NCBI GenBank assembly: GCA_963846525.1
Contig: CAWJWE010000008.1
Coordinates: 2,319-66,318 of the forward strand
Origin: an uncultured Actinomycetota bacterium
Lineage (GTDB): Bacteria > Actinomycetota > Actinomycetes > JACCUZ01
Length of the DNA stretch: 64,000 nt
Direction of reading: 5' to 3'
Program-made: the position numbers and the translations under genes
Shown here: in pieces, positions 3,251 to 63,371 of the stretch
Layout of the letters: each line of letters opens with the position of its first letter
Position numbering within the stretch: the first letter of the stretch is position 1
Notes under the pieces: generated by a model
What the model was told of the DNA's origin: nothing
The model's database searches: none
What the model saw: only the letters and a program-made list of their open reading frames with translations

Positions 3251-3293
3251 GGCGCGCGGCGGAGGCGCCCGGAGGGTCGTCTATCCTTCGGGG

Positions 3294-5246
3294 ATGCCGC
3301 GCTTGACCCTGCCCGACGCGACCTCCACCGAGCTCCCCGAGGGGGAGCCCGTCGGCAGCGCGCTGCCGGCCGGCGTCGTGGCCGCGCGGGTCGACGGCGA
3401 GCTCCGCGATCTCTCCCACGTGCCGGCGGCCGACGCGGCGGTCGAGCCGGTGGATCGTCGCTCCGACGACGGGCTGCACGTGCTCCGCCACTCGGCCGCG
3501 CACGTGCTGGCGCAGGCCGTGTGCCAGCTCTGGCCGGGGACCCAGCTCGGGATCGGGCCGGCGATCGCCGACGGCTTCTACTACGACCTGGCGATCTCCC
3601 GAGCACGTCTCCTCCGACGATCTGCCGCGGATCGAGGAGGCGATGCGCGCGATCGTCGCCGAGGACCAGCCGTTCCTCCGCGAAGAGGTCGGACGCGATG
3701 ACGCCCTCCGCCGGCTCGAGGGCCAGCGGTTCAAACGCGAGATCGTGGAGGGGCTGGCCGGGGACGACGCGTCGGGGGACGCCACCGCAGGCGCCGAGAC
3801 CGTGACCTTCTACCGCAACGGCGACTGGGAGGACCTCTGCCTCGGCCCGCACCTGCCCTCCACCGGGGGCCTCGTCGCGTTCCGGCTGACCGCGGTGGCC
3901 GGCGCCTACTGGCGCGGCAGCGAGGACCAGCCGCAGCTGACGCGGATCTACGGCACCGCGTGGGCGAGCCAGGGCGACCTCGACGCCTACCTCGAGCGGA
4001 TCGAGGAGGCGGAGCGGCGCGACCACCGCCGGCTCGGGATGGACTGGATCTGTTCTCCTTCCCCGACGAGATCGGCTCGGGGCTGGCCGTGTTCCACCCG
4101 CGAGGCGGGCTGGTCCGTCGGGTGATGGAGGAGTACTCGCGGCGCCGCCACGTGGAGTCGGGCTACGACTTCGTCAACTCGCCGCACATCACGAAGCGCG
4201 ACCTGTTCGATACGAGCGGTCACCTGGACTGGTTCGCCGACGGGATGTTCCCCCCGATGGAGGTCGACGGCGGCACCGAGTACTACCTCAAGCCGATGAA
4301 CTGCCCGTTCCACATCCTGATCTACCGGTCGCGCACGCGCTCCTACCGAGAGCTGCCCTTGCGCCTGTTCGAGTTCGGAACGGTGTACCGCTACGAGAAG
4401 TCCGGCGTGGTGCACGGGCTCACGCGGGTGCGCGGCCTCACGATGGACGACGCCCACATCTTCACCACGAAGGAGCAGATGGCCGAGGAGCTCCCCTCGC
4501 TGCTCACCTTCACCCTGTCGTTGCTGCGCGACTACGGGCTGGACGAGTTCTACCTGGAGCTCTCGACGAGGCCCGAGGGCAAGGCGGTCGGGTCCGACGA
4601 GGAGTGGGAGGAGGCGACCGAGGCGCTGCGTCGCGCGGCGCTGGGCATGGACCTCGACCTCGTGATGGACGAGGGCGGGGGCGCGTTCTACGGGCCGAAG
4701 ATCAGCGTGCAGGCGCGCGACGCGATCGGCAGGACGTGGCAGATGTCCACGATCCAGGTCGACTTCCAGATGCCGCAGCGCTTCGACCTGCACTACGCCG
4801 GGTCCGACGGCAAGCGCCACCGGCCGATCATGATCCACCGCGCCCTGTTCGGCTCGATCGAGCGGTTCTTCGGGGTGCTCACCGAGCACTACGCCGGCGC
4901 GTTCCCGCTCTGGTTGGCGCCCGAGCAGCTCCGCATCCTCCCGGTGGCCGATCGCAACGCCGATGCGGCGCACGAGCTCGCGGCGACGGCGCGTGCGGCC
5001 GGACTCCGGGTCGAGGTGGACGACGCCAAGCAGTCGGTGGGCAAGAAGATCCGCGCGGCCCAGCTCATGAAGACGCCGTACGTGATCGTGCTCGGCGACC
5101 GCGACCTGGAGGCCGGGACCGTCACGGTCCGGGACCGCTCGGGCGCGGAGACCGCCGGGTTGTCCTTCGACCACGTGGTCGGCGCCCTCGTGGACGAGGC
5201 GGCGTCCCGCCGGCTCACCCAGACCGACCTCGCCTCCGTGGGCTGA
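3294..5246 (+). pseudogene. thrS: threonine--tRNA ligase; 2 frameshifts as assembled
   Basis: Spliced from ORFs 3294..3701 ([20 protein letters not shown]), 3643..4125 ([18 protein letters not shown]) and 3960..5246 (class II core [36 protein letters not shown]). Shifts near ~3595 and ~4040. Confidence 0.9.
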
Positions 5247-31295: not shown

Positions 31296-32209
31296 ATGTT
31301 CGACTCCCACCGAGGGAAGGGGACGGCCGGAGTGGAGTTCCTCGCGCCGAGCACGTGGGCCGACGCGCTGGCCGCGCGCAGCGAGCACCCCGGCGCGGTG
31401 CCGATCGCGGGTGGCACCGACGTGATGGTCGAGCTCAACTTCGACCGGCACCGGCCGGACGTCCTGATCGACCTCACCCGGGTCCCCGAGCTGGGCGAGT
31501 GGTCCCGCAGCGACGACGGCGGGATCCGGCTCGGCGCCGGCGTGACCTTCGCCCGGGTGATGACCGAGCTGGCCGAGCACGGCTCCCGGGCTGGCGATGG
31601 CGTCCCGGACCGTCGGCTCGCCGCAGATCCGGGTGCGCGGCACGGTCGGCGGCAACCTGGGCTCGGCCTCCCCGGCCGGCGACGCGCACCCGGTGCTGCT
31701 CGCGATCGACGCCGTCGTCGAGGTCGAGTCGGTGCGCGGGGTCGCGGCAGGTCCCGGTCGCGGACTTCTTCACCGGCGTGAAGAAGAGCGCGCTGGAGCC
31801 GGACGAGCTGATCTCTGCGGTGCTGCTGCCGCCGCTGGCCGGCCCCCAGCAGTTCGCCAAGATCGGCACCCGCAACGCGATGGTGATCGCCGTGACGTCG
31901 TTCGGGCTCGCGCTGCATCCCGAGCGGCAGGCGGTCGGCGCGGCGATCGGCTCGGCCGCCCCGACGCCGCGGCACGCGCGGACTGCCGAGCTGTTCCTCG
32001 CGGCGGCGCTGGCCGAGGACGGGCTGTGGGAGTCGCGGGCCGAGGTCCCCGACGCCGTCGCGACGCGGTTCGGCGACCTGGTCGCGGCTGACGCGTCACC
32101 GATCGACGACGTGCGCGGCACCGCGGCGTACCGGCGGCACGCCCTCTCGGTGCTGGCCCGGCGCACGCTGGGCTGGGCCTGGCAGGACTACCGGCGAGAG
32201 GCGGCCTGA
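31296..32209 (+). pseudogene. xanthine dehydrogenase family FAD-binding subunit; 2 frameshifts
   Basis: Spliced from the frames of ORFs 31008..31781 (PIAGGTDVMVELNF), 31597..32091 (MASRTVGSPQIRVRGTVGGNLGSASPAGD) and 31292..32209 (FAKIGTRNAMVIAV, DDVRGTAAYRRH). Confidence 0.85.
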
Positions 32210-32211
32210 GG

Positions 32212-32686
32212 ATGCGGGTCGAGCTCACGGTGAACGGCGAGCGCCGGCAGGCGGACGACGTGTGGGAGGGCGAGAGCCTGCTCTACCTGCTGCGTGAACG
32301 GCTCGGGCTGCCGGGCTCGAAGAACGCCTGCGAGCAGGGCGAGTGCGGGTCGTGCTCGGTCTACCTCGACGGCGAGGTCGTGTGCGCCTGCCTGGTGGCG
32401 GCCGGCCAGGCCGAGGGCCGCGACGTCGTCACGGTCGAGGGGCTCGCCGACGACGACGCGGCCGGGCTGCACCCGGTGCAGACCGCGTTCCTGGAGACCG
32501 GGGCCGTGCAGTGCGGCTTCTGCACGCCCGGGCCTGGTGGTCGCGGTGCACGACCTGCTGCAGCGGGTGCCGGCCCCGGACGACGACACGGTGCGCGAGG
32601 CGCTCGCCGGGAACCTGTGCCGCTGCACCGGCTACGAGAAGATCCTCGACGCCGTGCGGCTGGCGGCCGACCGGATGCGGGCGTGA
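32212..32686 (+). pseudogene. xanthine dehydrogenase family (2Fe-2S)-binding subunit; 1 frameshift near ~32530
   Basis: CEQGECGSCSV and QCGFCTPG, then in ORF 32294..32686 GNLCRCTGYEKI. Confidence 0.9.
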
Positions 32687-34056
32687 GCGACGTGCTCGTG
32701 ATCGAGGGCGCGACGGTCTGCACCGTGGACGCCGCGGGTACCGAGCACCCGGCCGGGCACGTCGTGGTCGAGGGCAACCGGATCAGCGCGGTCGGTGCCG
32801 GGCCGGCACCGGAGGAGGTACGCCGGGCGGCGGACCGCGTCCTCGACGCGACCGGCTGCCTGCTCACGCCAGGCCTGGTCAACACCCACCAGCACCTCTA
32901 CCAGTGGGCGACCCGCGGGCTGGCCGTCGACGCGACGCTGTTCGAGTGGCTCACCGAGCTCTACCCGGTGTGGGCCGGCATCGACGAGGAGGTCGTGCGG
33001 GCCGCGTCGGCTGCGGCGCTCGGCTGGCTGGCACGCACCGGCTGCACGACGAGCACCGACCACCACTACGTGTTCCCGGCCGGCGGCGGTGACCTGCTCG
33101 CGGCCGAGATCGGCGCAGCGGCGGCGGTGGGGCTGCGCTTCCACCCGACCCGCGGGTCGATGGACCTCGGCGCCAGCCAGGGCGGGTTGCCGCCCGACTC
33201 GGTGGTCGAGGACCTGGACGCCGTCCTGGACGCGACCGAGTCGGCGATCACCCGGTTCCACGACCCGTCGTACGACTCGATGCTGCGGGTGGCGGTGGCG
33301 CCCTGCTCGCCGTTCTCGGTGACCGCGAAGCTGATGACCGAGGCGGCCGACCTGGCCCGCCGGCACGGCGTGCGGCTGCACACCCACCTGGCCGAGACCG
33401 TCGACGAGGAGACGTTCTGCGCGCGAACGGTTCGGCGCGACCCCCACCGAGTACGTCGACTCGCTGGGCTGGCTCGGTCCGGACGTCTGGATGGCCCATG
33501 CCGTGCACCTCGACGACGCGGCCGTGGCCCGGTTCGGCGCCACCGGCACCGGCGTCGCGCACTGCCCGTCGAGCAACGCCCGGCTCGGCGCCGGCATCGC
33601 CCGCACCCGGGACCTGGTCGACGCCGGCGTCCCGGTCGGGCTCGGGGTCGACGGTGCGGCGTCCAACGAGGCCGGCTCGCTGCTTGGAGGAGCTGCGGCA
33701 CGCGGCGTTGTTCGCCCGGGCCCGCGGCGGGCCGACCGCGCTCTCGGTGCGCGAGGCGCTGCGGCTGGCGACGTACGGCGGCGCCCAGGTGCTCGGCCGG
33801 GCCGACGAGATCGGGTCGATCGAGGTCGGCAAGCTCGCCGACCTCGCCGCTGTGGCGGCTCGACACGCTGCCGCACGCGGGCATCGCCGACCCGGTCGCG
33901 GCGCTAGCCCTCGGCTCGGCGCCGCCGCTCGAGCTGCTGCTGGTCGACGGTCGCGCGGTGGTGGAGCAGGACCGGCTGGTGACGGTCGACGAGGAGGAGC
34001 TGGCGCGGGACGCGGCGTCGGCGTCCCGGCGGCTGCTCGAGAGGAGCTCCCGATGA
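32683..34056 (+). pseudogene. amidohydrolase (guanine / 8-oxoguanine deaminase-like); at least 3 frameshifts
   Basis: GTG 32683 overlaps the Fe-S subunit stop (GTGA). LTPGLVNTHQHLYQ metal-binding HxH, RLHTHLAET, MAHAVHLDD, VAHCPSSNARLG, GLGVDGAASN spread over three frames. Confidence 0.8.
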
Positions 34057-36342
34057 CGGCACCCGTCAGCACCCCGGTGCGCACCGACGGCGGCGTCGGC
34101 ACCGACGCGGCCCGGCCGGACGGCACCCTGAAGGTCACCGGCGAGTTCGCCTACGGCAGCGACCTGTGGGCCGACGAGATGCTCTGGGGCGTCACCCTGC
34201 GCAGCCCGTACCCGGCCGCCCGGATCAGGTCCATCGACCTCGGGCCGGCGCTGGCCGTGCCCGGCGTCTATGCCGTGCTCACAGCCGACGACGTCCCCGG
34301 CGACAAGCGGTACGGGCTGGAGTTCCAGGACCAGCCGGTGCTGGCGATGGACGTCGTGCGCTACCAGGGCGAGCCGGTCGCGCTGGTCGCGGCCGAGCAC
34401 CCGGAGACGGCCCGGCGGGCCGCCGCGCGGATCGTCGTCGACTACGAGGAGCTCGAGCCGGTCACCGACGCCCGGGTCGCGCTGGGGCACGCGGCCCGCG
34501 AGGTGCACCCGGAGCCGACGCCGGTCGTGGAGCGCAGCCGGGAGGCGGCGCCGCTGCACCCGCACGGCAACCTGATCCGGCACCTGAAGATCCGCAAGGG
34601 CGGCCGCGGACGCCACCGCGGACGTCGTGGTCGAGGGCGACTACGAGGTCGGCATGCAGGACCAGGCGTTCCTCGGCCCGGAGTCCGGTCTCGCGGTGCC
34701 GGCCGAGGACGGTGGCGTCGACCTGTACGTCGCCACCCAGTGGCTGCACGTCGACCAGCAGCAGATCTGCGGCGCCCTCGGCCTGCCACCCGAGAAGGTG
34801 CGCCTCACCCTCGCCGGTGTCGGCGGGGCGTTCGGCGGCCGCGAGGACCTCTCGATGCACGTGCACGCCTGCCTGCTCGCGATGCACACCGGCAAGCCGG
34901 TGAAGATGTCGTACAACCGCGAGGAGTCGTTCTTCGGTCACGTGCACCGGCACCCGGCCCGGCTGCACTACGAGCACGGGTTCACCCGGGCCGGTGACCT
35001 GGTCTTCGTCCGCGCCACGATCTGGCTCGACGGCGGGGCCTACGCATCCAGCAGCGCGGCCGTCGTCGGCAACGCCGGGCTGATGGGCATCGGCCCCTAC
35101 GTCGTGCCGAACGTGCACATGGACTGCTACGGCGCCTACACGAACAACCCGCCGTGTGGCGCGATGCGTGGCTTCGGCGCGGTCCAGGCGGCGTTCGCCT
35201 ACGAGTCGCAGATGGACAAGGGAGCGGCCGCGCTCGGCATCGACCCGGTCGAGCTGCGCTGCCGCAACGCCATGGAGGAAGGCTCGATCGCGCCGACCGG
35301 GCAGGTGGTCGACAGCCCCGCACCGGTGGCCGACCTGCTCCGCCGGCTGGAGGCGATGCCGCTGCCGCCGGACCGGGTCGGCGAGGACCTTCGCCAGCTG
35401 CCCGGAGGGGTGGCGAACTCCACCCACGGCGAGGGCGTACGCCGGGGCATCGGCTACGCGGTGGCGTACAAGAACATCGGGTTCTCCGAGGGCTTCGACG
35501 ACTACTCGACCGCCCGGGTACGGCTCGAGGTGACGGCGGGCGAGCCGGTGGTCACCGTGCACACCGCGGCGGCCGAGGTGGGGCAGGGCCTGGTCACCGT
35601 GCAGCAGCAGATCGCGCGCACCGAGCTGGGTGTCGAGCGGGTCGTGGTCGCACCTGCGGACACCGCGGTGGGCAGCGGCGGATCGTCGTCGGCGTCCCGG
35701 CAGACCTACGTGACGGGTGGTGCAGTGCGCGAGGCGTGCCGGAGGGTGCGCGACCGGGTGCTCGCCCGCTCCGGGGTGTCGTCCTGGGACGAGGTCGACA
35801 CCGACACGCTGGTGGCCGCACTGGGGGGCGACGCGGTCGAGGAGACCGTCGAGTGGCGGCACCGGCCCACCGAGGCCGTCGACCCGTCCACCGGACAAGG
35901 CAACGCGCACGTGCAGTACGCGTTCGCCGCCCACCGCGCGGTCGTCGACGTGGACGTCGAGCTGGGCCTGGTCAAGGTCGTCGAGCTGGCGTGCACCCAG
36001 GACGTCGGCAAGGCGGTCAACCCGCAGGCGGTCGTCGGGCAGATCCACGGCGGCAGCGCGCAAGGGCTGGGGCTGGCGCTGATGGAGGAGGTCGTCGTCC
36101 AGGACGGCATCATCCGCAACCCGTCCTTCACCGACTACCTGATCCCGACCATCCTCGACATGCCGCCGATGACCGTGGAGGTCCTCGAGCTGCCGGACCC
36201 ACACGCGCCGTACGGGCTGCGCGGCGTCGGCGAGCCGCCCACCATCTCCTCGGGGCCGGCGGTGCTGTCCGCGGTCCGTGCGGCGACCGGGCAGTTCCTC
36301 AGCCGGGTGCCGATCCGACCCGAGCACATCTGCGGCACCTGA
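34053..36342 (+). pseudogene. xanthine dehydrogenase family molybdopterin-binding subunit; 1 frameshift near ~34610
   Basis: ATG 34053 overlaps the upstream stop (ATGA). [49 protein letters not shown]. Confidence 0.9.
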
Positions 36343-36352
36343 GTCACGCCGG

Positions 36353-37709
36353 ATGACCGACCTCGTGCTGCACGCCCCCCGTGCCGTGCTGCCAGCCGCG
36401 GCCGGGGAGCAAGCGGTGACCGTCACCGTCGTGGGCGGTCGGATCGTGGGCGTCGGGCCGCTGGACCGCTCGGTCACCGGCCGACCGAACGGCGAGGTGG
36501 TCGAGCTCGGCGACGACGTCGTCCTGCTGCCCGGGCTGGTCGACACCCACGTGCACGTGAACGAGCCCGGCCGCACCGAGTGGGAGGGCTTCGCCTCGGC
36601 GACCCGCGCCGCGGCGGCCGGTGGCGTGACGACGATCGTCGACATGCCGCTGAACAGCCTGCCGCCGACGCTGGACCCCGAGGCGCTGGCGGTCAAGCGG
36701 GCGGCGGCCGAGGGCAAGTGCTTGGTGGACGTCGGCTTCTGGGGCGGCGCCGTGCCCGGCAACCTCGGCCGGCTGGGCGCGCTGCTCGACGCCGGGGTGA
36801 TGGGCGTCAAGTGCTTCCTGCCCGACTCCGGGGTCGAGGAGTTCCCGGCGTTGTCGTCGGCCGGATTGCTCGCCGCGGCCGAGGAGGTGGCGGCGGCCGA
36901 CGGACTGCTGCTCGTGCACGCCGAGGACCCCGGCGTCCTGTCCGGGGCGCCGGCGGCAGCCGGCCCGGCGTACCGGACGTTTCTCGCGTCGCGCCCGCAC
37001 AGCGCCGAGGACCGCGCGATCGACGCCGTCATCGACGCGGCCAGGCGGACCGGGGCGCGGCTGCACGTCGTGCACCTCTCGAGCGCCGCGGCCCTGCCGG
37101 CGCTGGCGGCCGCCAAGGCCGACGGTGTGCGGGTGACGGTCGAGACCTGCCCGCACTACCTGGTGCTGCGCGCCGAGGACGTGCCGGACGGGGCGACGTC
37201 GTTCAAGTGCTGCCCGCCGGTGCGCGACGAGGCCAACCGGGAAGCGCTCTGGGCCGGCCTGGCCGACGGCACCATCGACCTCGTCGTCAGCGACCACTCG
37301 CCGTGCACCGCCGAGCTCAAGCACCTCGACACCGGCGACTTCGGCACCGCCTGGGGCGGCATCTCCTCGCTGCAGCTCGGGCTGCCCGCTGGTGTGGACC
37401 GAGGCGCGCCGGCGCGGGCACTCGCCGGCCGACGTGGTGCGCTGGATGTCGTCAGGACCGGCCGGGCTGGTGGGTCTCACCAGGAAGGGCGGGATCAGGG
37501 CCGGGGCGGCGGCCGACCTCGTCGCGTTCGACCCGGATGCCGAGCAGGTGGTCGACCCGTCGCGGCTGCACCACCGCAACGCGGTGTCGCCGTACGCCGG
37601 TGCGCGGCTCACCGGCGTGGTGCGCGGGACGTGGTTGGCTGGGGCGCCGGTCGGCGCGGACCGGCCGGGTCCGGCGACCGGACGGCTGCTGTCGAGAGGG
37701 GAGGCGTGA
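36353..37709 (+). pseudogene. allB: allantoinase; 1 frameshift near ~37390
   Basis: [58 protein letters not shown]. The C-terminus is in ORF 37392..37709. Confidence 0.9.
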
Positions 37710-38747
37710 TGGCCCAGGAGGAGGCGACCGGCCAGGACCCGCTGGCCCTGCCGGACCTCGCGGTGCGGACCTTCGGCGGCGCCGTGGTGTGGGCCAACGA
37801 CGAGCTGTTCGCCGGGCGGGAGAACCTGATCAACCCCGGACCTGCCGCGTTCACGCCGCGGACGTTCGGTGCGAAGGGTCAGGTCTACGACGGCTGGGAG
37901 ACCCGGCGGCGACGCGAGCCCGGCCACGACGAGGCCATCGTGCGGCTCGGTGCGCCCGGTGTGGTGCGCGCCGTGGTCGTCGACACCAGCCACTTCACCG
38001 GCAACTTCCCGAGCGAGGCGTCGGTCGAGGGGCTGGCCGTCGACGGGCAACCGGCCGTGGCCGCTCTGCGCGAGGCCGAGTGGACCACGCTGGTCGAGCG
38101 CTCGCCGCTCCAGGGCGACACCGCGAACGTCTTCGCCGTCTCGTCGGCGAGACGGTGGACCCACCTGCGTCTCACCATCCATCCGGACGGCGGCGTGGCC
38201 CGGCTGCGGGTGCACGGCCAGGTCGTCGCCGACCCGCGGCCGATCGAGGCGCTCGGCACCATCGACCTCGCCGCGCTCGACCTCGGCGGCCGGGTCACCG
38301 GCTGCAGCAACCTGTTCTACGGGTCGCCGGACCGGCTGATCGCGCCCGGGCTGGCCCGGTCGATGGGCGAGGGCTGGGAGACCGCGCGGCGGCGCGACGA
38401 CGGCAACGACTGGGTCGAGGTGCGGCTGGCCGCGCGCGGCTCGGTGCGCGTCGTCGAGCTGGACACGACATGGTTCCTGGGGAACGCGCCCGGGGCGGCC
38501 GCCCTCTCGGCGTACGACGGCGACGGCGACCGCGCCGATCCTGGGTCGTGGTTCCCGCTGCTGGAACGCACCGCGCTGCAGCCGGACACCCGGCACCGTT
38601 TCGTGCTCGCCGAGCCGTCGGCGCCGGCCAGCCACGTGCGCCTCGACGTCTACCCGGACGGCGGGATGGCCCGGCTGCGGCTCTGGGGTCGGCCCGACCG
38701 ACGACGGGCTGGCCGCGCTGCGGGACCGGTGGGACGCGACCGGATGA
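37709..38747 (+). pseudogene. alc: allantoicase; 1 frameshift near ~38695
   Basis: ATG 37709 overlaps the allB stop. Two repeats: [10 protein letters not shown]...[10 protein letters not shown]...[13 protein letters not shown] and EGWETARRR...[10 protein letters not shown]...[13 protein letters not shown]. The reconstructed tail [15 protein letters not shown] ends at 38747. Confidence 0.85.
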
Positions 38748-39984
38748 TCCTGCCCGACGACGTCCTGCGCGAGCTGGACGACCTGCTCGCCCCTGCCGAT
38801 GCGGCGCTGGCCGCGGGCTGGCCCGGAGAGCCGGCCGGTCGGCAGCCGGTGCACACGCTGTACCTGCCGGCCGACCGGGCCGCCGCCGACGTCGTGACCC
38901 GGGCCGGCGCCGACGCGCTGGACGCGGTGGCCGCCGAGGACGCCGGGTCGATGGCGCGGATCACCGGGCTGGCCGCCGCGGTGGTCGACGAGGTGTGGCC
39001 GCGGGTGCTGGCCAAGCTGGCGGGCGAGCCGGTCGAGGACCTTCGGCTGGACCTCGAGGACGGCTACGGCGCGCGACCTGACGACGAGGAGGACCGGCAT
39101 GCGCGGCTCGCCGGCGAGGTCCTCGCCGGGCTGGGCGGTGCGGGCGCGCCGTTCGTCAGCGGGGTCCGCATCAAGTCGCTGGAGGCGCCGACCCGGCGGC
39201 GCGGCGTGCGCTCGCTGGACCTGGTGCTCGGGGCGTTCGGCGGCGCGCCGCCGGCCGGCTTCGTCGTCACCCTGCCGAAGGTCACCTCGGTCGACCAGGT
39301 GCGGGCGATGGTGCTGCTCTGCGAGCGGCTCGAGGCCGCGCACGGCCTGCCGCCCTCGTCGCTGCGCTTCGAGGTGCAGGTCGAGACGCCGCAGGCGGTG
39401 CTCGGTGCCGACGGGACGGCGACCGTCGCGCGCGCCGTGCACGCAGCCGGCGGGCGGTGCACCGGCCTGCACTACGGCACGTACGACTACAGCGCGTCGC
39501 TCGGTGTCGCCGCCGCGCACCAGTCGATGGAGCACCCGGTCGCCGACCACGCGAAGGCGGTGATGCAGGTGGCGGCGGCGCAGACCGGCGTGCGGGTGAG
39601 CGACGGGTCGACCAACGTGCTGCCGCTCGGTGACCGGGCGCACGTCGAGGCGGCCTGGGCGCTGCACGCGCGACTGGTGCGGCGGTCGCTGGAGCGCGGC
39701 ATCTACCAGGGCTGGGACCTGCACCCCGCGCAGCTGCCGACCCGCTACCTCGCGACGTTCGCGTTCTACCGGGAGCGGGCTGGCCGCCGCGGTCGCGCGG
39801 CTGCGCGGCTACCTGGACCGGCAGTCGGGTGGGGTGCTCGACGAGCCGGCGACGGCGTTCGCGCTGGCTGGGTTCCTTCTGCGCGGCCTCGACTGCGGGG
39901 CACTGGACGCCGACGAGGTCGCGGCGGCCGGCGGCCCGGACGGCGACACGCTCCGGCGGCTGGCCCGGCGCGACGGGGCGCAGC
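38744..39984 (+). pseudogene. HpcH/HpaI aldolase - citrate lyase beta (CitE)-like TIM-barrel protein, function unknown; 1 frameshift near ~39775, 3' boundary undefined
   Basis: ATG 38744 in an ATGA overlap with the alc stop. [56 protein letters not shown]. It continues in the frame of ORF 39630..40034. No stop codon precedes the uraD motifs. Confidence 0.6.
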
Positions 39985-39986
39985 CG

Positions 39987-40466
39987 TGGCTCGACACATT
40001 GCCAGCGGGCGAGCTCCGGTCGAGGCGCTGCTGACGGTGTGCGCCTCACCCGCGCTGGGCCGACCTGGTCGCCGCCGCCGCGCCCTACCGCTCTGCCGAC
40101 GGGCTGCTCGCTGCCGCCGAGCGTGCTCTCGGCGCTCTCGCCGAGCAGGACGTCGACGATGCCCTGGCCGGCCACCCCCGGATCGGTGAGCGGTCCGCCC
40201 ACGCGGCCTCGCAGCGCGAGCAGGCCGGTGTCGGCGACGCCGTGAAGGACGCGCTGGCCGAGGGGAACCGCGAGTACGAGAACCGGTTCGGCCACGTCTA
40301 CCTGGTCTGCGCCAGTGGTCGCAGCGGCGAGGAGCTGCTCGACGTGCTGCGCTCCCGGCTCGGCAACGACCCGGCGCACGAGCGCACCGTCGTGCGTACC
40401 GAGCTCGGCAGCATCAACCGGCTGCGGCTGCAGCGTCTGCTGGACGAAGGAGGACCGACCCGATGA
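39987..40466 (+). pseudogene. uraD: 2-oxo-4-hydroxy-4-carboxy-5-ureidoimidazoline (OHCU) decarboxylase; 1-2 frameshifts, start undefined
   Basis: LDTLPAGE / [11 protein letters not shown] / [12 protein letters not shown] in alternating frames, then GHPRIGER...SQREQAG...NREYENRFGHVYLVCASGRSGEELL. The stop overlaps the uraH start. Confidence 0.8.
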
Positions 40467-56784: not shown

Positions 56785-58195
56785 ATGTCAGAGGCACCCG
56801 AGCCGCCGGTCACCCACTCGGTGACGGCTGCGATGCAGGGCCTGCGCGACGCGGTCGAGCGGCTCGGCGTCGTGTCGGCAGCGGGTGCCGACGGTGAGCT
56901 GTGGACGATGCCGGGGCCGGACCTGCTCGAGGAGACCACCGAGCTGCACCGGCTGCTCTGCGCAGCTGATGCGGTGCTGCACGGCATGGTCCGCGAGATC
57001 GACACCCGGGGTGCGGCGACCGCGAAGGGTGCGCCGACGACTCAGGCGTGGCTGCGGGAGCGGCTGCACCTGCACCCCGGCGCGGCCAAGCGGCTGGTGG
57101 CCACTGCCCGGGCACTGCACGACGACCCGTCCGGTGCGCTGGTGCACCACGCTGAGCCCGATGAGGTGCCCGCACCGGGCGGCCGCGCGGTGCTGGCAGC
57201 CGCGTTCGCGGCCGGGGCGATCTCCGGCGAGCACGCTGCGGTGGCCTGCCAGACCCTGGCCGAGCTGCCCGCCGAGGTCGCGTCAGGCATGGTGGCCGAG
57301 GCCGAGACCTACCTGTGCGCGGAGGCCGCCCGTCGTGACCCCAAGGTGCTGGCCAAGTTGGCCCGGCACCTGTCCCACGTCCTGGACCCCGAGGCCGGGG
57401 ACACCCTGGCCGAGAACGAAGACCATGACCGGGCCACCCAGGAGCTGCACGTCCGGCAACGTGCAGACGGCGGCTCCGACGTCCGCGCTCGCTTCGGTGC
57501 CGAGCTGACGGCCGAGTTTCTCTCCCAACTCCAGCCGCTGGCCGGTCCCCGACCCACCTGCGACGACCGGCCTGACATGCGCACGGTCGCCCAGCGCAAC
57601 GCCGACGCCCTCGCCGAGCTGCTGCGCCGGTCCGCGATCGCGGGGACCACCCCGGCCCGGCACGGGTCCCGGGCCACGATCACCGTCTCGATGGCACTGG
57701 AGACCTTGGAGCGCCGCCTCGGCGCCCCCGGCGCCACTCTGGACTGGTCCGGCCCGATCTCGGCCGAGACCGCGCGCCGGCTCGCCTGCGACGCCCAGGT
57801 CATCCCTGTCGCTACTCGGCAGCTGTGGCGAGCCCCTCGACGTCGGGCGTGCCTCTTACCCGGTCACCCAGGCCATCTGGCGGGCCTTGGTAGCCCGCGA
57901 CGGCGGCTGCTCCTTCGACACCTGCGGTCGGCCGCCGGAGTGGACCGAAGCCCATCACCGGATCCACTGGGAGGACGGCGGCGAGACCTCGGTTGCGAAC
58001 TGTTGCCTGTTCTGCGACTTCCACCACCGCCGGGTCCATCATGGCGGCTGGGACGTCGAGCTGATCGACGGCGTCATCCACGTCATCCCGCCGCCCTGGG
58101 TCGATCCCGAGCGCGTCCCACGACCCAACCAGCACCCCGACCGGCTCATTGACCTCCGCCGCATCCCTCGACCACCCGGCAACGCCAGGGAATGA
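56785..58195 (+). pseudogene. DUF222 + HNH endonuclease ('13E12 repeat' type); 1 frameshift near ~57812
   Basis: DUF222-like N-terminus (ELHRLLCAADAVLHGMVREID...TQAWL). HNH in ORF 57887..58195: ALVARDGGCSF..C..PPEWTEAHHRIHWEDGGETSVANCCLFCDFHHRRVH. Confidence 0.85.
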
Positions 58196-58306: not shown

Positions 58307-60755
58307 ATGGCCGAGACCGTCCTCCCGCAGCGCGCCCGAGTCGTCGTGATCGGCGGCGGTGTCATCGGGACGTCGGTCGCCTACCACCTGGCCCACCTGG
58401 GCGAGGACGTCCTGCTGCTCGAGCGCGACCGGCTCACCAGCGGCACCACCTGGCACGCGGCCGGCCTGATGGTGACCTTCGGCTCGACGTCCGAGACGTC
58501 GACCGAGATGCGCACCTACACCCGCGACCTGTACTCCCGGCTGGAGGCCGAGACCGGCCTGGCCACCGGGTTCAAGCCGGTCGGGTTCATCGAGGTGGCC
58601 AGCGACGCGGACCGGCTGGAGGAGTACCGCCGGGTGTCGGCGTTCAACCGGTTGTGCGGTGTCGACGTGCACGAGATCTCGGCGCGCGAGGTCGGCGAGC
58701 TCTTCCCGCTCGCGCGTACCGACGACGTCCTGGCCGGCTTCTACGTCGCGGAGGACGGCCGGGCGAACCCGGTCGACGTCACCATGTCGCTGGCCCGCGG
58801 CGCCCGGCAGGCCGGTGCCCGGATCGCCGAGGGCGTGCCGGTGCTCGACGTCCTGACCGACCGCGGCGCCGTGACCGGCGTACGGACCGCGCCATGGCGA
58901 CGTCGAGTGCGAGGTCGTCGTGAACTGCGCGGGCATGTGGGCCCGGCAGCTCGCCGCGCGCACCGGCGTGAGCGTCCCGCTGCAGGCCGCCGAGCACTAC
59001 TACCTGCTCACCGAGGAGATCCCCGGCATCTCCGGCGACTGGCCGGTGCTGGAGGACCCGGCGCGCTACGGCTACTTCCGCGAGGAGGGCGGCGGCCTGA
59101 TGCTCGGGCTGTTCGAGGCGGTCTGCGCGCCGTGGCAGGTCGGCGGGGTGCCCGATGACTTCTCCTTCGGCGAGCTGCCGCCGGACTGGGACCGGATGGG
59201 CCCCTACCTCGAGACGGCGATGACCCGGGTCCCGGTGTCGTCCGAGGTCGGCATCAAGAAGTTCTTCTGCGGGCCGGAGAGCTTCACCCCGGACCTCCAG
59301 CCGGTGGTGGGGGAGGCGCCGGAGGTGCGCAACTACTTCGTCGCGGCCGGGCTGAACTCGATCGGCATCCTCACCGGTGGCGGGCTCGGCCGGGTGCTGG
59401 CGCACTGGATCGTCGACGGCCGCCCGGGGGTGGACATCACCGGGATGAACATCGACCGGCTGCACAGCTACCAGGCCAACCCGGAGTACCGCGCGACGCG
59501 CACCGTCGAGTCGCTCGGCATGGTCTACCAGTGCCACTACCCGAACCGCTCGATGCAGACGGCGCGCGACGCCAAGCGGTCCGCGTTCCATGACCGGCTC
59601 GCGGCCCGCGGCGCGTACTTCCGGGACGTCAGCGGCTGGGAGGGTGCCGACTGGTACGCGCCGGAGGGTCAGACGCCGGACCCCGGTCCGCTGACCTGGG
59701 GCCGGCCGCAGTGGTTCGACCTGTGGGCGGCGGAGCACCGTGCGGCCCGCGAGGACGTCATCGCGATGGACATGTCGTTCATGTCGAAGTTCCTCGTGCA
59801 GGGCCGCGACGCCGGCGCCCTGCTGCAGCAGCTGTCCGCCAACCACGTCGACGGGGAGCCCGGTGTCATCACCTACACCCAGTGGCTCAACGAGGGCGGC
59901 ACCCTGGAGGCCGACCTCACGGTCACCAAGCTCGACGACGAGCGGTTCTGGGTGGTCGCGTCGGACACGGCGCACCGGCACGCCGAGACCTGGATGCGCC
60001 GGCATGCCGGCGACCGGCACGTCACGGTCACCGACATGACCTCGGGGTTCGCCCAGCTCAACGTGCAAGGGCCACGGTCCCGCGAGCTCCTCCAGTCACT
60101 GACCTCGGTCGACCTGTCGAACGACGCGTTCCCGTTCCGCACCGCGCGCTCGATCGACATCGGGTTCGCCCGCGCCCTGTGCATCCGGATCACCTACCTG
60201 GGGGAGCTCGGCTACGAGCTGTACATCCCGGTGGAGCAGGCGACGCACGTGTACGACCGGGTGGTGGCCGCCGGCCCGGCGTACGCCCTGCGGCACGCGG
60301 GGCTCAAGTCCCTCGCCAGCCTGCGAATGGAGAAGGGCTATCGCGACTACGGCCACGACATCGACAACACCGACTCGGTCCTCGAGGCGGGCCTCGGGTT
60401 CGCGGTGTCCTTCGACCACGACTTCATCGGTCGGGCCGCCGTCGAGGCGAAGAAGGCGGAGGGCGCGCTGACCCGCCGGCTCGTCCAGGTGCTGCTCGAG
60501 GACCCGGAGCCAATGCTGCACCACGCCGAGCCGGTGCTGCGCGACGGCAAGCCGGTGGGCTACGTGCGGGCCGCGTCGTACGGGCACACCCTCGGCGGTG
60601 CGGTCGGACTGGCGATGGTCCAGGGCTCCGAGGCCGTCGACAAGGCATGGATGGAGGGCGCCGACTGGCAGGTCGAGGTGGCCGGCCGGCTGCACTCGGC
60701 CCGGGCGTCGCTGCGCCCGCTCTACGACCCGACGAACGCGAAGATCAAGGCCTGA
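58307..60755 (+). pseudogene. FAD-dependent oxidoreductase fused to an aminomethyltransferase (GcvT) domain, dimethylglycine/sarcosine dehydrogenase family; 1 frameshift near ~58893
   Basis: VVVIGGGVIGTSVAYHLA, TSGTTWHAAGL, NCAGMWA; the GcvT part has ITYLGELGYELY and LRMEKGY. Confidence 0.88.
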
Positions 60756-60768
60756 CCACCTGGAAGTG

Positions 60769-61143
60769 TCAGGGTTCCTCGAAGCCGGAGCTCGGGGCCT
60801 GCGCGGAGTTGCCGGACTTGTCGTCGCGGTAGACGACCCAGAGGATGAGCTCACCCGGCAGCGAGTGTCGATGGCCGCGAGGCCACCTCGACTCGAAGTG
60901 GCGGCGCAGCTCGTCGGGCTCGGAGAACGTGTAGGCCATGGGTGCGTCCACGACCTTGGCCACCGGGTCGTCGAGCAGGTCCACCGCCGTCTCGAGGACG
61001 AGCTCGCGAACCATCGCGTGGTTCTCCGCGCCGACGAGCTCGTCGGCGAAGGCGCACATCCTCATGAGGCTGACGTAGTCGTCTTCGAGGTCGTACAGCA
61101 CCTCCCCGCGCAGCCTCGGGATCAGGGCGGCGTCGACCGGCAT
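60769..61143 (-). CDS. small acidic protein, candidate immunity protein for the upstream toxin
   Basis: 124 aa. ATG 61143 is preceded by a GAGAGGA RBS that contains the upstream gene's stop codon. No motif recognised. Confidence 0.5.
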   Translation of the reverse strand: MPVDAALIPRLRGEVLYDLEDDYVSLMRMCAFADELVGAENHAMVRELVLETAVDLLDDPVAKVVDAPMAYTFSEPDELRRHFESRWPRGHRHSLPGELILWVVYRDDKSGNSAQAPSSGFEEP

Positions 61144-61155
61144 GGCGACATCCTC

Positions 61156-62235
61156 TCAATCTCGCGGGCGGTGCACCCGTTCGTAGCCCAGCTGAGGGAG
61201 GTCGCGAACCTCGATCGCGTAGCCCTCGCTGTTGCTGAACCGGCGGAAGGCGATCTTCGCTCCTGAGGGCAGGGTGGTGACAGAGATGGTCTCGTGGCCC
61301 GCCTGGACGATCCTGGTGGGCCCCAGCCACTCGAGGTGGTCGCGGTAGAGCCGTTCGATCGACTCGTCGTCGGGCAGCAGCCGGGTGTGCCGTCGGTCGC
61401 CCCGGACGGTGAGCTGGGACAGCACCTCGATCGCGCGTGTCTCGGCCGGTACGTCGTCGACGACCTTGGCGACGTCACCGGCGTGGTCCAGCGCCTTGCC
61501 GACCTTGGCGCCGCCGGCCACCCAGCCCCCTGGACCAGGCACGGCCGCGGCGGCTGTGAGCAGCCCGTCGGCCCAGCGGCCCTGTGCGAAGTAGACGGCG
61601 GCGTTGACCGCGTCGACGGCGTCGCCGACCACCGGGGCGAACCCGGCCAGGTCGAGCCAGGTCCGGGCCGACAGGCCGGCCCGGACCACCCGCCGACCGG
61701 ACAGCTCGGTCAGCTCAGCAGTGAGCTGACGGGCTGCCCGGTCGTAGCGGGTGCGGGCGTCATACGCACGCTCGCGGGCCCGGTCGAGCAGCGCCACGGC
61801 CCGCGGGTCGTAGAGGTTGCCGTCGGTCCGATGGCCGCCCCACCCGCCCGACGTCCCGGCGCTGGTCAGGGCCCCGTCAACGTGGTCGGCCGCCTGCTGG
61901 GCGGCCCGCGCGGCGATGAGCAGCCGGCTCGCCTCGTCGGCCAGCGACCGGGCCGCATCGACCTGGTGGCCGAACCGGGACAGGGCGTCGGCCGCGCGCA
62001 GCATCCGGCGGCGCTCCTGCCCCAGCGCGACGGCGGTGACGGCCAGCCGTTGGTCGGCTGCGGCGGACGCGACGCCGGACCATCGCTGCACCGGCAGCAT
62101 CGCGGCCAACCGGCGCCCGAGGGCACTGAGCCGGTCGGCGGCCGCGACCAGGCCGTCAGCGGTCCGGGCGGCGTCGGCCGGGTCGTCGACCGGGAGCGGC
62201 CAACCCAGCAGCGGGTCGTCGATCGTGGCCGTCAC
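61156..62235 (-). CDS. WXG-type helical N-terminus + pre-toxin TG domain protein with an unassigned ~115-aa C-terminal module (candidate T7SS polymorphic toxin)
   Basis: GTG 62235 in a GTGA overlap with the upstream gene. QRWSGVAS (W-x-G), an Ala/Arg-rich helical region, then GFAPVVGDAVDAVNAAVYFAQGRWADGLLTAAAAVPGPGG, then an unrecognised C-terminus. Confidence 0.65.
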   Translation of the reverse strand: MTATIDDPLLGWPLPVDDPADAARTADGLVAAADRLSALGRRLAAMLPVQRWSGVASAAADQRLAVTAVALGQERRRMLRAADALSRFGHQVDAARSLADEASRLLIAARAAQQAADHVDGALTSAGTSGGWGGHRTDGNLYDPRAVALLDRARERAYDARTRYDRAARQLTAELTELSGRRVVRAGLSARTWLDLAGFAPVVGDAVDAVNAAVYFAQGRWADGLLTAAAAVPGPGGWVAGGAKVGKALDHAGDVAKVVDDVPAETRAIEVLSQLTVRGDRRHTRLLPDDESIERLYRDHLEWLGPTRIVQAGHETISVTTLPSGAKIAFRRFSNSEGYAIEVRDLPQLGYERVHRPRD

Positions 62236-62495
62236 TGCAGCGGCACCGCCCGGGACTCCACCCGGGCGTAGTCGACCCGAGCCGTGTCGACCAGGACGGC
62301 GACGCTCGTCAACGCCGAGGACAGCGCCTGGAGCTGCTCGGCGCACACGGAGAGCAGGGCCCCGACCGCGTCGGCGGCGCCGATGTCCTCGCACGTCGGG
62401 GGAGCCGGCAGCTCGACCGCCCGGGTGGCACCGGCCGCGTCCCGCACCCCCGCCGACAGGCCGACGAGCGCCTCGGTCTCCACTGTCACGCGCAT
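62232..62495 (-). CDS. small helical protein (87 aa), EspC/WXG100-partner-like
   Basis: ATG 62495 within ORF 62232..62972. MRVTVETEALVGLSAGVRDAAG...LSSALTSVAVLVDTARVDYARVESRA. Coupled to the toxin gene. Confidence 0.5.
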   Translation of the reverse strand: MRVTVETEALVGLSAGVRDAAGATRAVELPAPPTCEDIGAADAVGALLSVCAEQLQALSSALTSVAVLVDTARVDYARVESRAVPLQ

Positions 62496-62534
62496 CCCCC
62501 CACGCTGCCGGTCCTGGCCGGCGAGGGAGGAACG

Positions 62535-62807
62535 ATGTCCACAGCTCCCACGCATGCGGCCGCCGACCGGCTGTTGTCCACAGGGCCGTCGTACGGTGAG
62601 CGGGTGGACGTCGCGATCGGGGAGCAGGGCATCCGGCTCGGTCAGCTGCTCAAGCTGGTCAACCTGGTCGACTCCGGTGGCGCCGCGCGCGGTCTGCTCG
62701 GTTCCGGCGAGGTGCGGGTCAACGGCGAGGTCGAGACCCGCCGCGGCCGCCAGCTGGCTCCGGGTGACGTGGTCGACTGCGCGGGTGAGCACGTCGTCCT
62801 GCGCTGA
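62535..62807 (+). CDS. S4 domain RNA-binding protein (YbcJ-like)
   Basis: GGGAGG RBS 6 nt before ATG 62535. IRLGQLLKLVNLVDSGGAARGLLGSGEVRVNGEVETRRGRQLAPGDVV. Confidence 0.8.
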   Translation: MSTAPTHAAADRLLSTGPSYGERVDVAIGEQGIRLGQLLKLVNLVDSGGAARGLLGSGEVRVNGEVETRRGRQLAPGDVVDCAGEHVVLR

Positions 62808-63034
62808 GTGGATTCGTTCCATTCCGCGCAGGATGCGTGCACCCGGCCGCGCACCTGCTAGCCTGGTCGGCGGTTGCAGTGAGCATTTCCCCGTACGTTT
62901 CTGACGCCCGCGGATTTCTGACACCGCGGGCCTTCCTGTCTCCCGAGATCTCTCGGTCGTAGGACGGTCCACGAGCAGCCCGGGGCGCGCACAGTGCGCG
63001 GCCCCGATCGTTCACCCAGAAGGAAGACAGATAC

Positions 63035-63238
63035 ATGGCTCAGGGCACTGTCAAGTGGTTCAACTCCGAGAAGGGCTTCGGCTTCATCGCTCAGGACGGC
63101 GGCGGCGCCGACGTCTTCGTGCACTTCTCGGCGATCCAGGGCGACGGCTACAAGTCGCTCGACGAGAACCAGCGCGTGGAGTTCGACATCACGCAGGGCC
63201 AGCGCGGCCCGCAGGCGGAGTCGGTCCGCCCGGTCTGA
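63035..63238 (+). CDS. cspA: cold shock protein (CspA family)
   Basis: [34 protein letters not shown] carries RNP1 and RNP2. GAAGGAAG RBS. Confidence 0.97.
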
Positions 63239-63257
63239 CCTGACACACAACCACGTT

Positions 63258-63290
63258 GGCCCCCGTCGCGAGACGGGGGCCTTCGTCGTT
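63258..63290 (+). terminator. rho-independent terminator after cspA
   Basis: GGCCCCCGTC-gcga-GACGGGGGCC (10-bp stem) followed by TTCGTCGTTT. It starts 20 nt after the stop. Confidence 0.7.
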
Positions 63291-63371
63291 TCCGACTGGC
63301 CATAGTGTGCTTCCTGTTCGTGCAGGCCTGGTTGTCGACCGGTCTGGTCTGGGGCGCGGTGAAGGGCTGAG

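Follow-up and report, generated by a model that had tools for sequence, protein, structure and literature searches.

What is encoded by three short, tightly packed genes on one strand of an actinobacterial contig, and is the middle one a secreted toxin with its neutraliser encoded directly behind it? The question arises from a 64-kb stretch of DNA from an uncultured Actinomycetota bacterium (contig CAWJWE010000008.1; the window, in what follows, is this whole stretch of 64,000 nucleotides), in which the genes, here called g1, g2 and g3, were found in the following arrangement (aa, amino acids; GC3, GC content at the third codon position):

62232-62495, minus strand: g1, an 87-aa acidic helical protein, the putative EsxB/PE/EspC-like partner of the toxin (GC3 of 0.94, conserved upstream of g2, sub-threshold matches to the EsxAB clan).
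61156-62235, minus strand: g2, a predicted 359-aa polymorphic toxin composed of a helical WxG export domain, a linker and a C-terminal toxin module.
60769-61143, minus strand: g3, a 124-aa acidic cytoplasmic protein, the predicted cognate immunity protein, of a family present in neither Pfam nor NCBIfam.

The trio, which is chromosomal, is likely to be a polymorphic toxin-immunity cassette of the WXG/type VII kind seen in actinobacteria, with secretion, toxicity, neutralisation and catalysis predicted from comparison of sequences and models. More tentatively, and with chances that we put somewhat short of even, the C-terminal module (the tip) and g3 may constitute a previously undescribed pair of toxin and immunity families, with a fold that has no solved relative, an Arg-x-x-Ser...His activity perhaps new among interbacterial toxins, at least four delivery contexts (ESX or type VII secretion system (T7SS), RHS, HINT and Campylobacter plasmid) and two immunity folds unrelated to each other (g3 family, Imm8).

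One body of evidence comes from the C-terminal end of g2 and from the gene that follows it.

61159-61464, minus strand: g2 residues 258-359, the C-terminal alpha+beta toxin module as predicted from sequence and model, with R331 and S334 invariant and H355 nearly invariant.

A Foldseek comparison with the model of full-length g2 yielded nothing beyond noise from BAR domains and coiled coils, for which reason a separate model of the tip was calculated. From 51 input sequences, the AlphaFold2 (AF2) model reached a pLDDT (predicted local distance difference test) of 94.8 and a pTM (predicted template modelling score) of 0.86, the elements following the order helix, short strand, long helix and five strands. 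The last ~100 aa show conservation within the g2 family, and across these 51 tip sequences the arginine and the serine (g2 numbering) do not vary, and several glycines are nearly as constant as the histidine. An exhaustive HMMER search with the tip profile among 1.84 billion representatives gave 55 matches, about seven of which, being multi-stretch matches in long repetitive proteins, were judged false positives by visual inspection. In most of the remaining matches the module forms the C-terminus of the protein, which is about 75 to 730 aa long, and the N-termini are unrelated to one another: the RHS core TIGR03696 (6e-20, three proteins), WXG100 and WXG100_2 (four proteins each), T7SS_signal and, in some carriers, hydrophobic segments resembling Sec signal peptides. 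The carriers are spread across Actinomycetota, Campylobacter and other phyla. They include a Kitasatospora plasmid 'polymorphic toxin-type HINT domain' protein (3.4e-19), a Mycolicibacterium plasmid protein with a WxG motif (WEG) and a Pro/Ala-rich tail of about 100 aa after the module (6e-17), and 622-aa proteins encoded on plasmids of Campylobacter jejuni and C. coli (1e-17). In locus L028 (labels of this form are our own handles) the tip follows an RHS-core remnant, and in L029, on a metagenome contig of ~52% GC, it belongs to an orphan array, with a Tox-REase-7 fragment and a HEAT-repeat gene as neighbours. Phage genomes contained no copy of the tip. One module on proteins with different trafficking N-termini is the arrangement by which polymorphic toxins are recognised (Zhang/Aravind), and the position of the module at or near the C-terminus behind RHS, HINT, WXG and signal-peptide-like N-termini thus argues that it is a polymorphic-toxin tip.

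No Pfam or NCBIfam model matches the tip, either in g2 or in the relatives examined. The original prediction, which had been made from the letters of the DNA and a list of open reading frames (ORFs), had suggested that the toxin module may belong to an undescribed family and had proposed profile and Foldseek comparisons of it. These comparisons gave a confident model and no match to a known fold, and the suggestion holds within the libraries searched (Pfam, NCBIfam, PDB sequences and Foldseek targets), the tip being also distinct from Ntox7 by profile comparison, as discussed below.

The Campylobacter carriers form a set of their own. On the C. jejuni plasmid pCjS36 (L042, locus 1926-4530) and on some 25 further Campylobacter plasmids, the tip forms the end of a hypothetical protein of 622 aa, the gene of which overlaps a downstream 248-aa gene that is unrelated to g3 or Imm8. 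The two genes probably constitute a toxin-immunity pair that has escaped annotation on these food-chain and clinical plasmids.

Members of the g3 family (24 homologues besides g3 itself) were found directly downstream of the tip in the window and in L005, L006, L010, L011 and L016, with a frameshifted copy in L013. They also follow the tip in four distant loci on unrelated hosts or contigs, namely L028, L029 and those of Kitasatospora and Mycolicibacterium. The g3-family profile detected the gene downstream of the tip in L029 (E 1.7e-6, hhalign 87.5%) and on the Mycolicibacterium plasmid (3.5e-5). The downstream proteins of the four distant loci belong to one family (phmmer E 1e-27 to 1e-9), none of them is in Pfam, and they have in common with g3 the motif (D/E)D(W/Y)V as well as a C-terminal Trp. 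The 124-aa protein itself, small and acidic as initially described (pI, the isoelectric point, is 4.6), has no match in Pfam or NCBIfam and carries no signal peptide. The recurrence of the tip/g3-family pairing over such distances is the strongest available evidence, drawn from sequence comparison, for the prediction that g3 is the cognate immunity protein.

In a sister set of loci (L007, L008, L009, L012 and L014) the gene downstream of the tip encodes Imm8 (PF15586, 5e-11). The g2 homologues P0012 and P0014 share 80% identity with g2 in residues 1-180 and 84% in the linker, whereas identity in the tip falls to 44-45%; both are followed by Imm8 instead of g3, and in the P0012 locus (L007) the S4 gene is present upstream, as elsewhere. 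Imm8-linked and g3-linked tips fall into largely separate clusters. The N-terminus is kept while the tip and the downstream gene are exchanged, which points to replacement of a toxin/immunity module, though the locus itself stays put; an immunity gene that lies immediately behind the tip and co-varies with it is a further property of polymorphic toxins. The earlier proposal of a toxin-immunity pair is supported comparatively, at the level of sequence, by the range of tip carriers, by the g3-family pairing and by the joint swap of tip and immunity gene to Imm8.

The possibility that g3 is a divergent Imm8 was rejected: BLASTP was negative, hmmscan gave no match, hhalign against the local Imm8 alignment gave 0.1%, and g3 has no WEY motif. 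The Imm8 proteins of the five sister loci carry the typical C-terminal PWEYDY, and the tip with which they are paired is not detectably Ntox7. Two contigs of a single metagenome-assembled genome (MAG), MFD04212.bin.2.192, represent the same S4-gene/cassette locus (L005 and L007) and differ in tip and immunity gene, one of the g3 type and the other of the Imm8 type; this MAG probably mixes two strains that differ at the cassette locus.

The route by which the toxin would leave the cell is suggested by the N-terminal part of g2 and by g1.

61696-62235, minus strand: g2 residues 1-180, a predicted helical-hairpin export domain, probably related to Pfam T7SS_signal (PF21725).
62074-62082, minus strand: W52-S53-G54 of g2 (the WxG in QRWSGVAS), placed by conservation and model at the turn that joins the first and second long helices.
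62256-62270, minus strand: Y76-A-R-V-E80 of g1, a type VII secretion motif of the YxxxD/E type near the C-terminus, conserved in 15 homologues.
61516-61656, minus strand: g2 residues 194-240, a Gly/Val/Asp-rich pre-toxin linker (LDLAGFxPVVGDAVD...AVPGPxGW), PT-TG-like and distinct from PF14449.

The AF2 model of g2, calculated with 42 homologues, contains helices at residues 19-45, 55-124 and 144-179 (pLDDT about 80-94). The WxG motif, already noticed in the first reading of the sequence, is located in the loop that joins helices 19-45 and 55-124, and therefore in a hairpin turn; both W52 and G54 are invariant across the 42 homologues. The C-terminus of g1 reads ...VDTARVDYARVESRAVPLQ, and in the alignment of its 15 homologues D75, Y76 and R78 are invariant and E80 is conserved in at least 90%. 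YxxxD/E is a general type VII signal according to Daleke et al. 2012, as cited in PMC8191103; it is expected on a substrate or on its partner, and g1 carries it. The earlier description of g1 as a small helical protein stands, although the conserved YxxxE had been overlooked. A g1 homologue is found directly upstream of every g2 homologue examined, of long or short form. Members of the g1 family give sub-threshold matches to the EsxAB clan (EspC in 5 of 15, WXG100 in 2 of 15), the best E values being 0.014 for PF10824 EspC and 0.0027 for PF06013 WXG100, both under the gathering score, and the g1 profile aligns with PE25 over the full length at a non-significant E of about 4.

For g2, PF18879 EspA_EspE was matched at E 0.038, under the gathering score. 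A closer relationship was detected through the linker, which led to a Sciscionella protein (L018) with PF21725 T7SS_signal (1.8e-44) and a C-terminal GH-E HNH nuclease (3.6e-12); the g2-family profile aligns with it at an hhalign probability of 97.2% and E 3.6e-11 over g2 residues 77-247, linker included. PF21725 is not mentioned in the literature searched. The T7SS-substrate reading, put forward at the outset, is supported by the invariant WxG in g2, the conserved YxxxE in g1 and this probable homology to a T7SS_signal protein. Together, g1 and g2 would form a bundle like that of EsxB/EsxA or PE/PPE, to which the small partner contributes YxxxE and the large one WxG.

The linker, whose GFAPVVGD...AVPGPGG stretch covers g2 residues 198-237, is the most conserved part of the g2 family, and AF2 confidence there is low. 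A related sequence, LD..GFVPV(V/L)GD.ID...VP, precedes the GH-E nuclease in Sciscionella and stands behind an RHS core in a MAG from the Chloroflexota, and the same linker occurs in Acidimicrobiales proteins with other C-termini. Since it stands ahead of different toxins in other taxa, it behaves as a pre-toxin module would. Membership in Pfam PF14449 PT-TG was tried and rejected, as the model matched 0 of 18 family members at E up to 1 and 0 of 6 linker proteins from outside the family at E up to 0.1; the label 'pre-toxin TG' in the original prediction is thus reduced to a resemblance.

Shorter paralogues of g2 (~300 aa) occur in L002/L009 (L002 9747-10915), L012, L014, L015 and L017. They end in a Pro/Arg-rich tail, without the toxin module and without a downstream immunity gene, and each has its own g1-like gene upstream; in three genomes the short-form g1'-g2' pair stands directly after a complete long-form cassette. 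They might serve as non-toxic substrates or as a reservoir for recombination, or they might be copies in decay.

The three genes are coupled, and the junctions first read from the sequence, together with the gene lengths of 87, 359 and 124 aa on one strand, were all confirmed.

62232-62235, minus strand: GTGA overlap of the g2 start codon and the g1 stop codon, read from the sequence as translational coupling.
61151-61157, minus strand: GAGAGGA ribosome-binding site of g3, read from the sequence, overlapping the g2 stop.

The start codons are ATG for g1, GTG for g2 and ATG (at 61143) for g3. The g2 stop codon TGA at 61158-61156 overlaps GAGAGGA (61157-61151), which is located 7 nt upstream of the g3 ATG. 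The same 4-nt g1/g2 overlap is present in the gene calls of L001, L002 and L004. In the frames of g1, g2 and g3, GC3 is 0.90-0.94 (0.93 for g3) versus 0.41-0.55 at second codon positions, a coding signature in a genome of ~72% GC. The pI of g1 is 4.4. The g2 protein has 48 homologues besides itself among 5.8 billion clustered proteins, with a precomputed Pfam domain in 0 of 48, and a scan of species-representative genomes confined the family to MAGs of uncultured soil Actinomycetota, one of them labelled Sporichthyaceae. In the window the trio is flanked by S4_2, CSD and DAO-FAO_M-GCV_T genes. A relative in which g2 is 54% identical shows the order cold-shock gene, S4_2 gene, proteins of 88, 361 and 137 aa, and DAO/GCV_T oxidase, and the contig with the window's own g2 protein has the same arrangement. 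The homologues, the constant place of g1 upstream of g2 and the shared neighbourhood together indicate that the trio is a conserved, chromosomally anchored operon and not a set of chance ORFs. None of the three proteins has a match above threshold in Pfam or NCBIfam, and no significant PDB sequence was retrieved with g2, g3 or the g1 profile. A promoter and terminator scan of 60500-63300 also found nothing, which is expected for an actinobacterium of 72% GC.

On this basis the following mechanism can be proposed. The helical hairpin of g1, with YxxxE at its C-terminal end, would associate with the WxG-bearing helical hairpin at the N-terminus of g2, and the export signal would be a composite one, displayed by the resulting four-helix bundle in the manner of EsxB/EsxA or PE/PPE. 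An ESX-type secretion ATPase, presumed to be encoded elsewhere in the genome, would recognise this signal. The Gly/Val/Asp-rich linker would join the export domain to the ~100-aa alpha+beta module, in which the conserved Arg-x-x-Ser and the C-terminal His may form the active site. Our best guess is that the tip acts as a small metal-independent nuclease, probably a ribonuclease (RNase), in a rival bacterium's cytoplasm. Within the producing cells and their kin, g3, translationally coupled and without a signal peptide, would bind the tip and block it.

Several results weigh against the reading as a secreted toxin cassette, or against parts of it. Direct matches of g2 to PF21725 are sub-threshold (the best at 16.4 bits versus a cut-off of 27), and direct Pfam matches to WXG100, T7SS_signal, EspA/EspE and EspC all lie under the curated cut-offs. 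The tip model has no significant Foldseek neighbour (best E 0.27 in the PDB, with a template modelling score of at most 0.36, and 0.12 in BFVD). The similarity that connects g3 with the immunity proteins of the distant loci is of moderate strength (E 1e-6 to 1e-5, hhalign 87.5%), and the whole basis of the RNase guess is the size, the alpha+beta topology, the Arg/Ser/His conservation and the Imm8 of the sister clade. The position of the cassette on the chromosome is conserved in relatives down to 54% identity, so that it is less mobile than many polymorphic toxin loci. No T7SS machinery, which the original prediction had likewise described as absent from the window, turned up when the ten largest ORFs in the 64 kb were scanned; these encode purine-catabolism enzymes, transporters and regulators.

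Among the other explanations, the most probable is that the tip is a very divergent member of Ntox7, in which case the toxin family would already be described. Imm8 is the immunity protein that predominates with Ntox7, itself predicted to be an RNase of the BECR fold, with the motif DGx+xhR (Zhang et al. 2012, PMC3482391), and the sister tip clade (L007, L008, L009, L012 and L014) has Imm8 downstream. Both modules are alpha+beta tips of about 100 aa on RHS, CdiA or T7SS proteins, and the order of motifs is similar, with DGxRxYRxPSxK...C-terminal NGH in Ntox7 and DG..I..R..SKSGG...K.H near the C-terminus in the g2 tip. For a direct comparison, Ntox7 sequences were collected from plasmid Ntox7-Imm8 loci by searches with Imm8 and then with the Pantoea toxin tip. 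An annotated Imm8 gene lies directly downstream of the CdiA, FHA and VENN tips so obtained (Pantoea, Paraburkholderia, Enterobacter) and of an unannotated Methylobacterium ORF, and the gene behind a related Variovorax RHS tip is annotated only as hypothetical; all these tips, that of Variovorax included, share DGLRVYRPPSAK...QANFE...NGH. When the 51 tip-family members were aligned by hhalign with 9 Ntox7 sequences, the probability was 0.24%, and hmmsearch with the g2-tip profile missed the Pantoea Ntox7 tip; for these two reasons the tip is not filed under Ntox7. In addition, the spacing from DG to R is off by one residue, the QANFE 'N motif' is absent from the g2 tip, SxSGG is absent from Ntox7, and the text of PMC3482391 contains no SxSGG-like motif. 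Foldseek, which is weak on small domains, listed 50 PDB matches, and no BECR-fold or RNase-fold protein (RelE, colicin D/E5, barnase, EndoU) was among them. Membership in Ntox7 is accordingly regarded as unlikely, and a possible remote relationship at the level of the fold is the main reason for the RNase-like guess.

Two further explanations would deprive the trio of an interbacterial role, and both appear far less probable than the Ntox7 assignment. The cassette might be a non-toxic ESX substrate pair of the PE/PPE or EspC/EspA kind, with a structural or cell-envelope tip and with g3 as a chaperone or regulator. The conserved, syntenic and apparently vertically inherited locus would fit such a pair, as would the weak EspC, EspA/EspE and PE25 matches, and the short forms of g2, which retain g1 without tip or downstream gene, indicate that the N-terminal pair has a life of its own. 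Nevertheless, the tip is found behind RHS cores, behind HINT domains and within orphan toxin arrays, all of them contexts specific to toxins, close relatives exchange it jointly with the downstream gene for Imm8, and g3-family genes accompany it even where the WXG partner is missing (L028, L029, Kitasatospora), so we consider a non-toxic pair very improbable. Slighter still is the chance that the trio is an intracellular toxin-antitoxin or abortive-infection module which is never secreted. Such a module would agree with the tight coupling of toxin and neutraliser, with the lack of secretion genes nearby (among the ten largest ORFs of the window) and with a frameshifted DUF222/HNH element about 3 kb away, but it would leave an export-type N-terminus of ~250 aa with WxG, a YxxxE partner and T7SS_signal homology without a role, and the order of helper, toxin and immunity gene is that of polymorphic toxins.

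The surroundings of the cassette show further features. At 58307-60755 on the plus strand, a dimethylglycine/sarcosine-oxidase-like gene (DAO + FAO_M + GCV_T + GCV_T_C) is split into two overlapping ORFs, of which 58307-59158 covers positions 1-189 of the DAO profile and 58920-60755 covers DAO 200-353 and the remaining domains. As the orthologue in L001 is a single 820-aa gene, the window copy is a frameshifted pseudogene or contains an assembly indel; L004, another assembly of the locus, breaks the oxidase gene differently. At 56785-58195 (plus strand) a DUF222 protein (3e-38) has an HNH motif in another frame (ORF 57887-58195, HNH E 4e-4). It looks like a frameshifted REP13E12-type element ~3 kb from the cassette, and in the relative L001 no such gene is present between the oxidase and flavodoxin genes. 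Farther away, at about 32200-40200 (plus strand), there is a purine-catabolism cluster with a [2Fe-2S]/molybdopterin enzyme of the xanthine-dehydrogenase type, amidohydrolases, allantoicase repeats and a DUF6986/HpcH-like protein; several of its genes are merged into one 1303-aa ORF in the mechanical ORF list.

The tip is found on plasmids of retail-chicken and clinical C. jejuni and C. coli, on mycobacterial and Streptomycetaceae plasmids and on chromosomes of soil actinobacteria, and has no model in the searched libraries. Naming the tip and immunity families would improve the annotation of loci for interbacterial competition, and a tip of ~100 aa that folds confidently in prediction is a small domain suited to biochemistry and structure determination. 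A split WxG/YxxxE signal on a toxin from non-mycobacterial Actinomycetota would be useful for the study of how ESX systems recognise toxin substrates. The sister loci offer a natural experiment with one toxin fold and two unrelated immunity proteins, and the pairing of Imm8 with a tip that is not detectably Ntox7 widens the known partner range of Imm8.

In respect to known systems, the cassette shares different traits with each. With Ntox7-Imm8 (PMC3482391) it has in common a small alpha+beta tip on RHS, CdiA or T7SS carriers, the use of Imm8 by the sister clade and a loose resemblance of motifs; it differs in the profile relationship of the tip (0.24%) and in the immunity protein of the window, which compares with Imm8 at 0.1%. 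LXG toxins of the Firmicutes T7SSb and their Lap targeting factors (PMC9600955, PMC10801868) also combine a helical N-terminus, small partners encoded upstream, a swappable toxin and downstream immunity, but g2 has no LXG domain and one partner versus two or three, and phylum and secretion subtype are different, so the parallel is one of functional analogy only. The PE/PPE and EsxB/EsxA pairs resemble g1 and g2 in having a partner of ~90-100 aa with YxxxD/E encoded immediately upstream of a larger, ~180-aa helical WxG partner, and in the composite signal; there is no significant match to them (PE25 E about 4; PPE41 Foldseek E about 1.2), and PE/PPE proteins are not toxin-immunity systems. The Sciscionella protein L018 with PF21725 shares the helical region and linker (LDVAGFVPVLGDAIDG...AAAAVP), probably homologous by hhalign, a WxG-type N-terminus and a C-terminal toxin, while g2 reaches only 10-16 bits against PF21725 (cut-off 27) and carries the R-x-x-S...H tip in place of the GH-E HNH nuclease.

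The closest described architecture is gp98-gp97-gp96 of McProf, a polymorphic toxin cassette of the WXG-100 family from a mycobacterial prophage (PMC8191103). The order is the same, with a small WXG100-like helical protein, a toxin with WXG-type N-terminus and C-terminal toxin domain, and an immunity gene; the predicted route is likewise ESX/T7SS, and both hosts are Actinomycetota. McProf gp97 has 732 aa, a Tde-like DNase tip (Pfam Toxin_43) and a GAD-like/DUF1851 immunity protein, and is encoded on a prophage, whereas g2 has 359 aa, a tip and an immunity family without existing models, and a conserved chromosomal site. The type of system is already known, and what is new here are the unmodelled toxin-tip and immunity families and their breadth.

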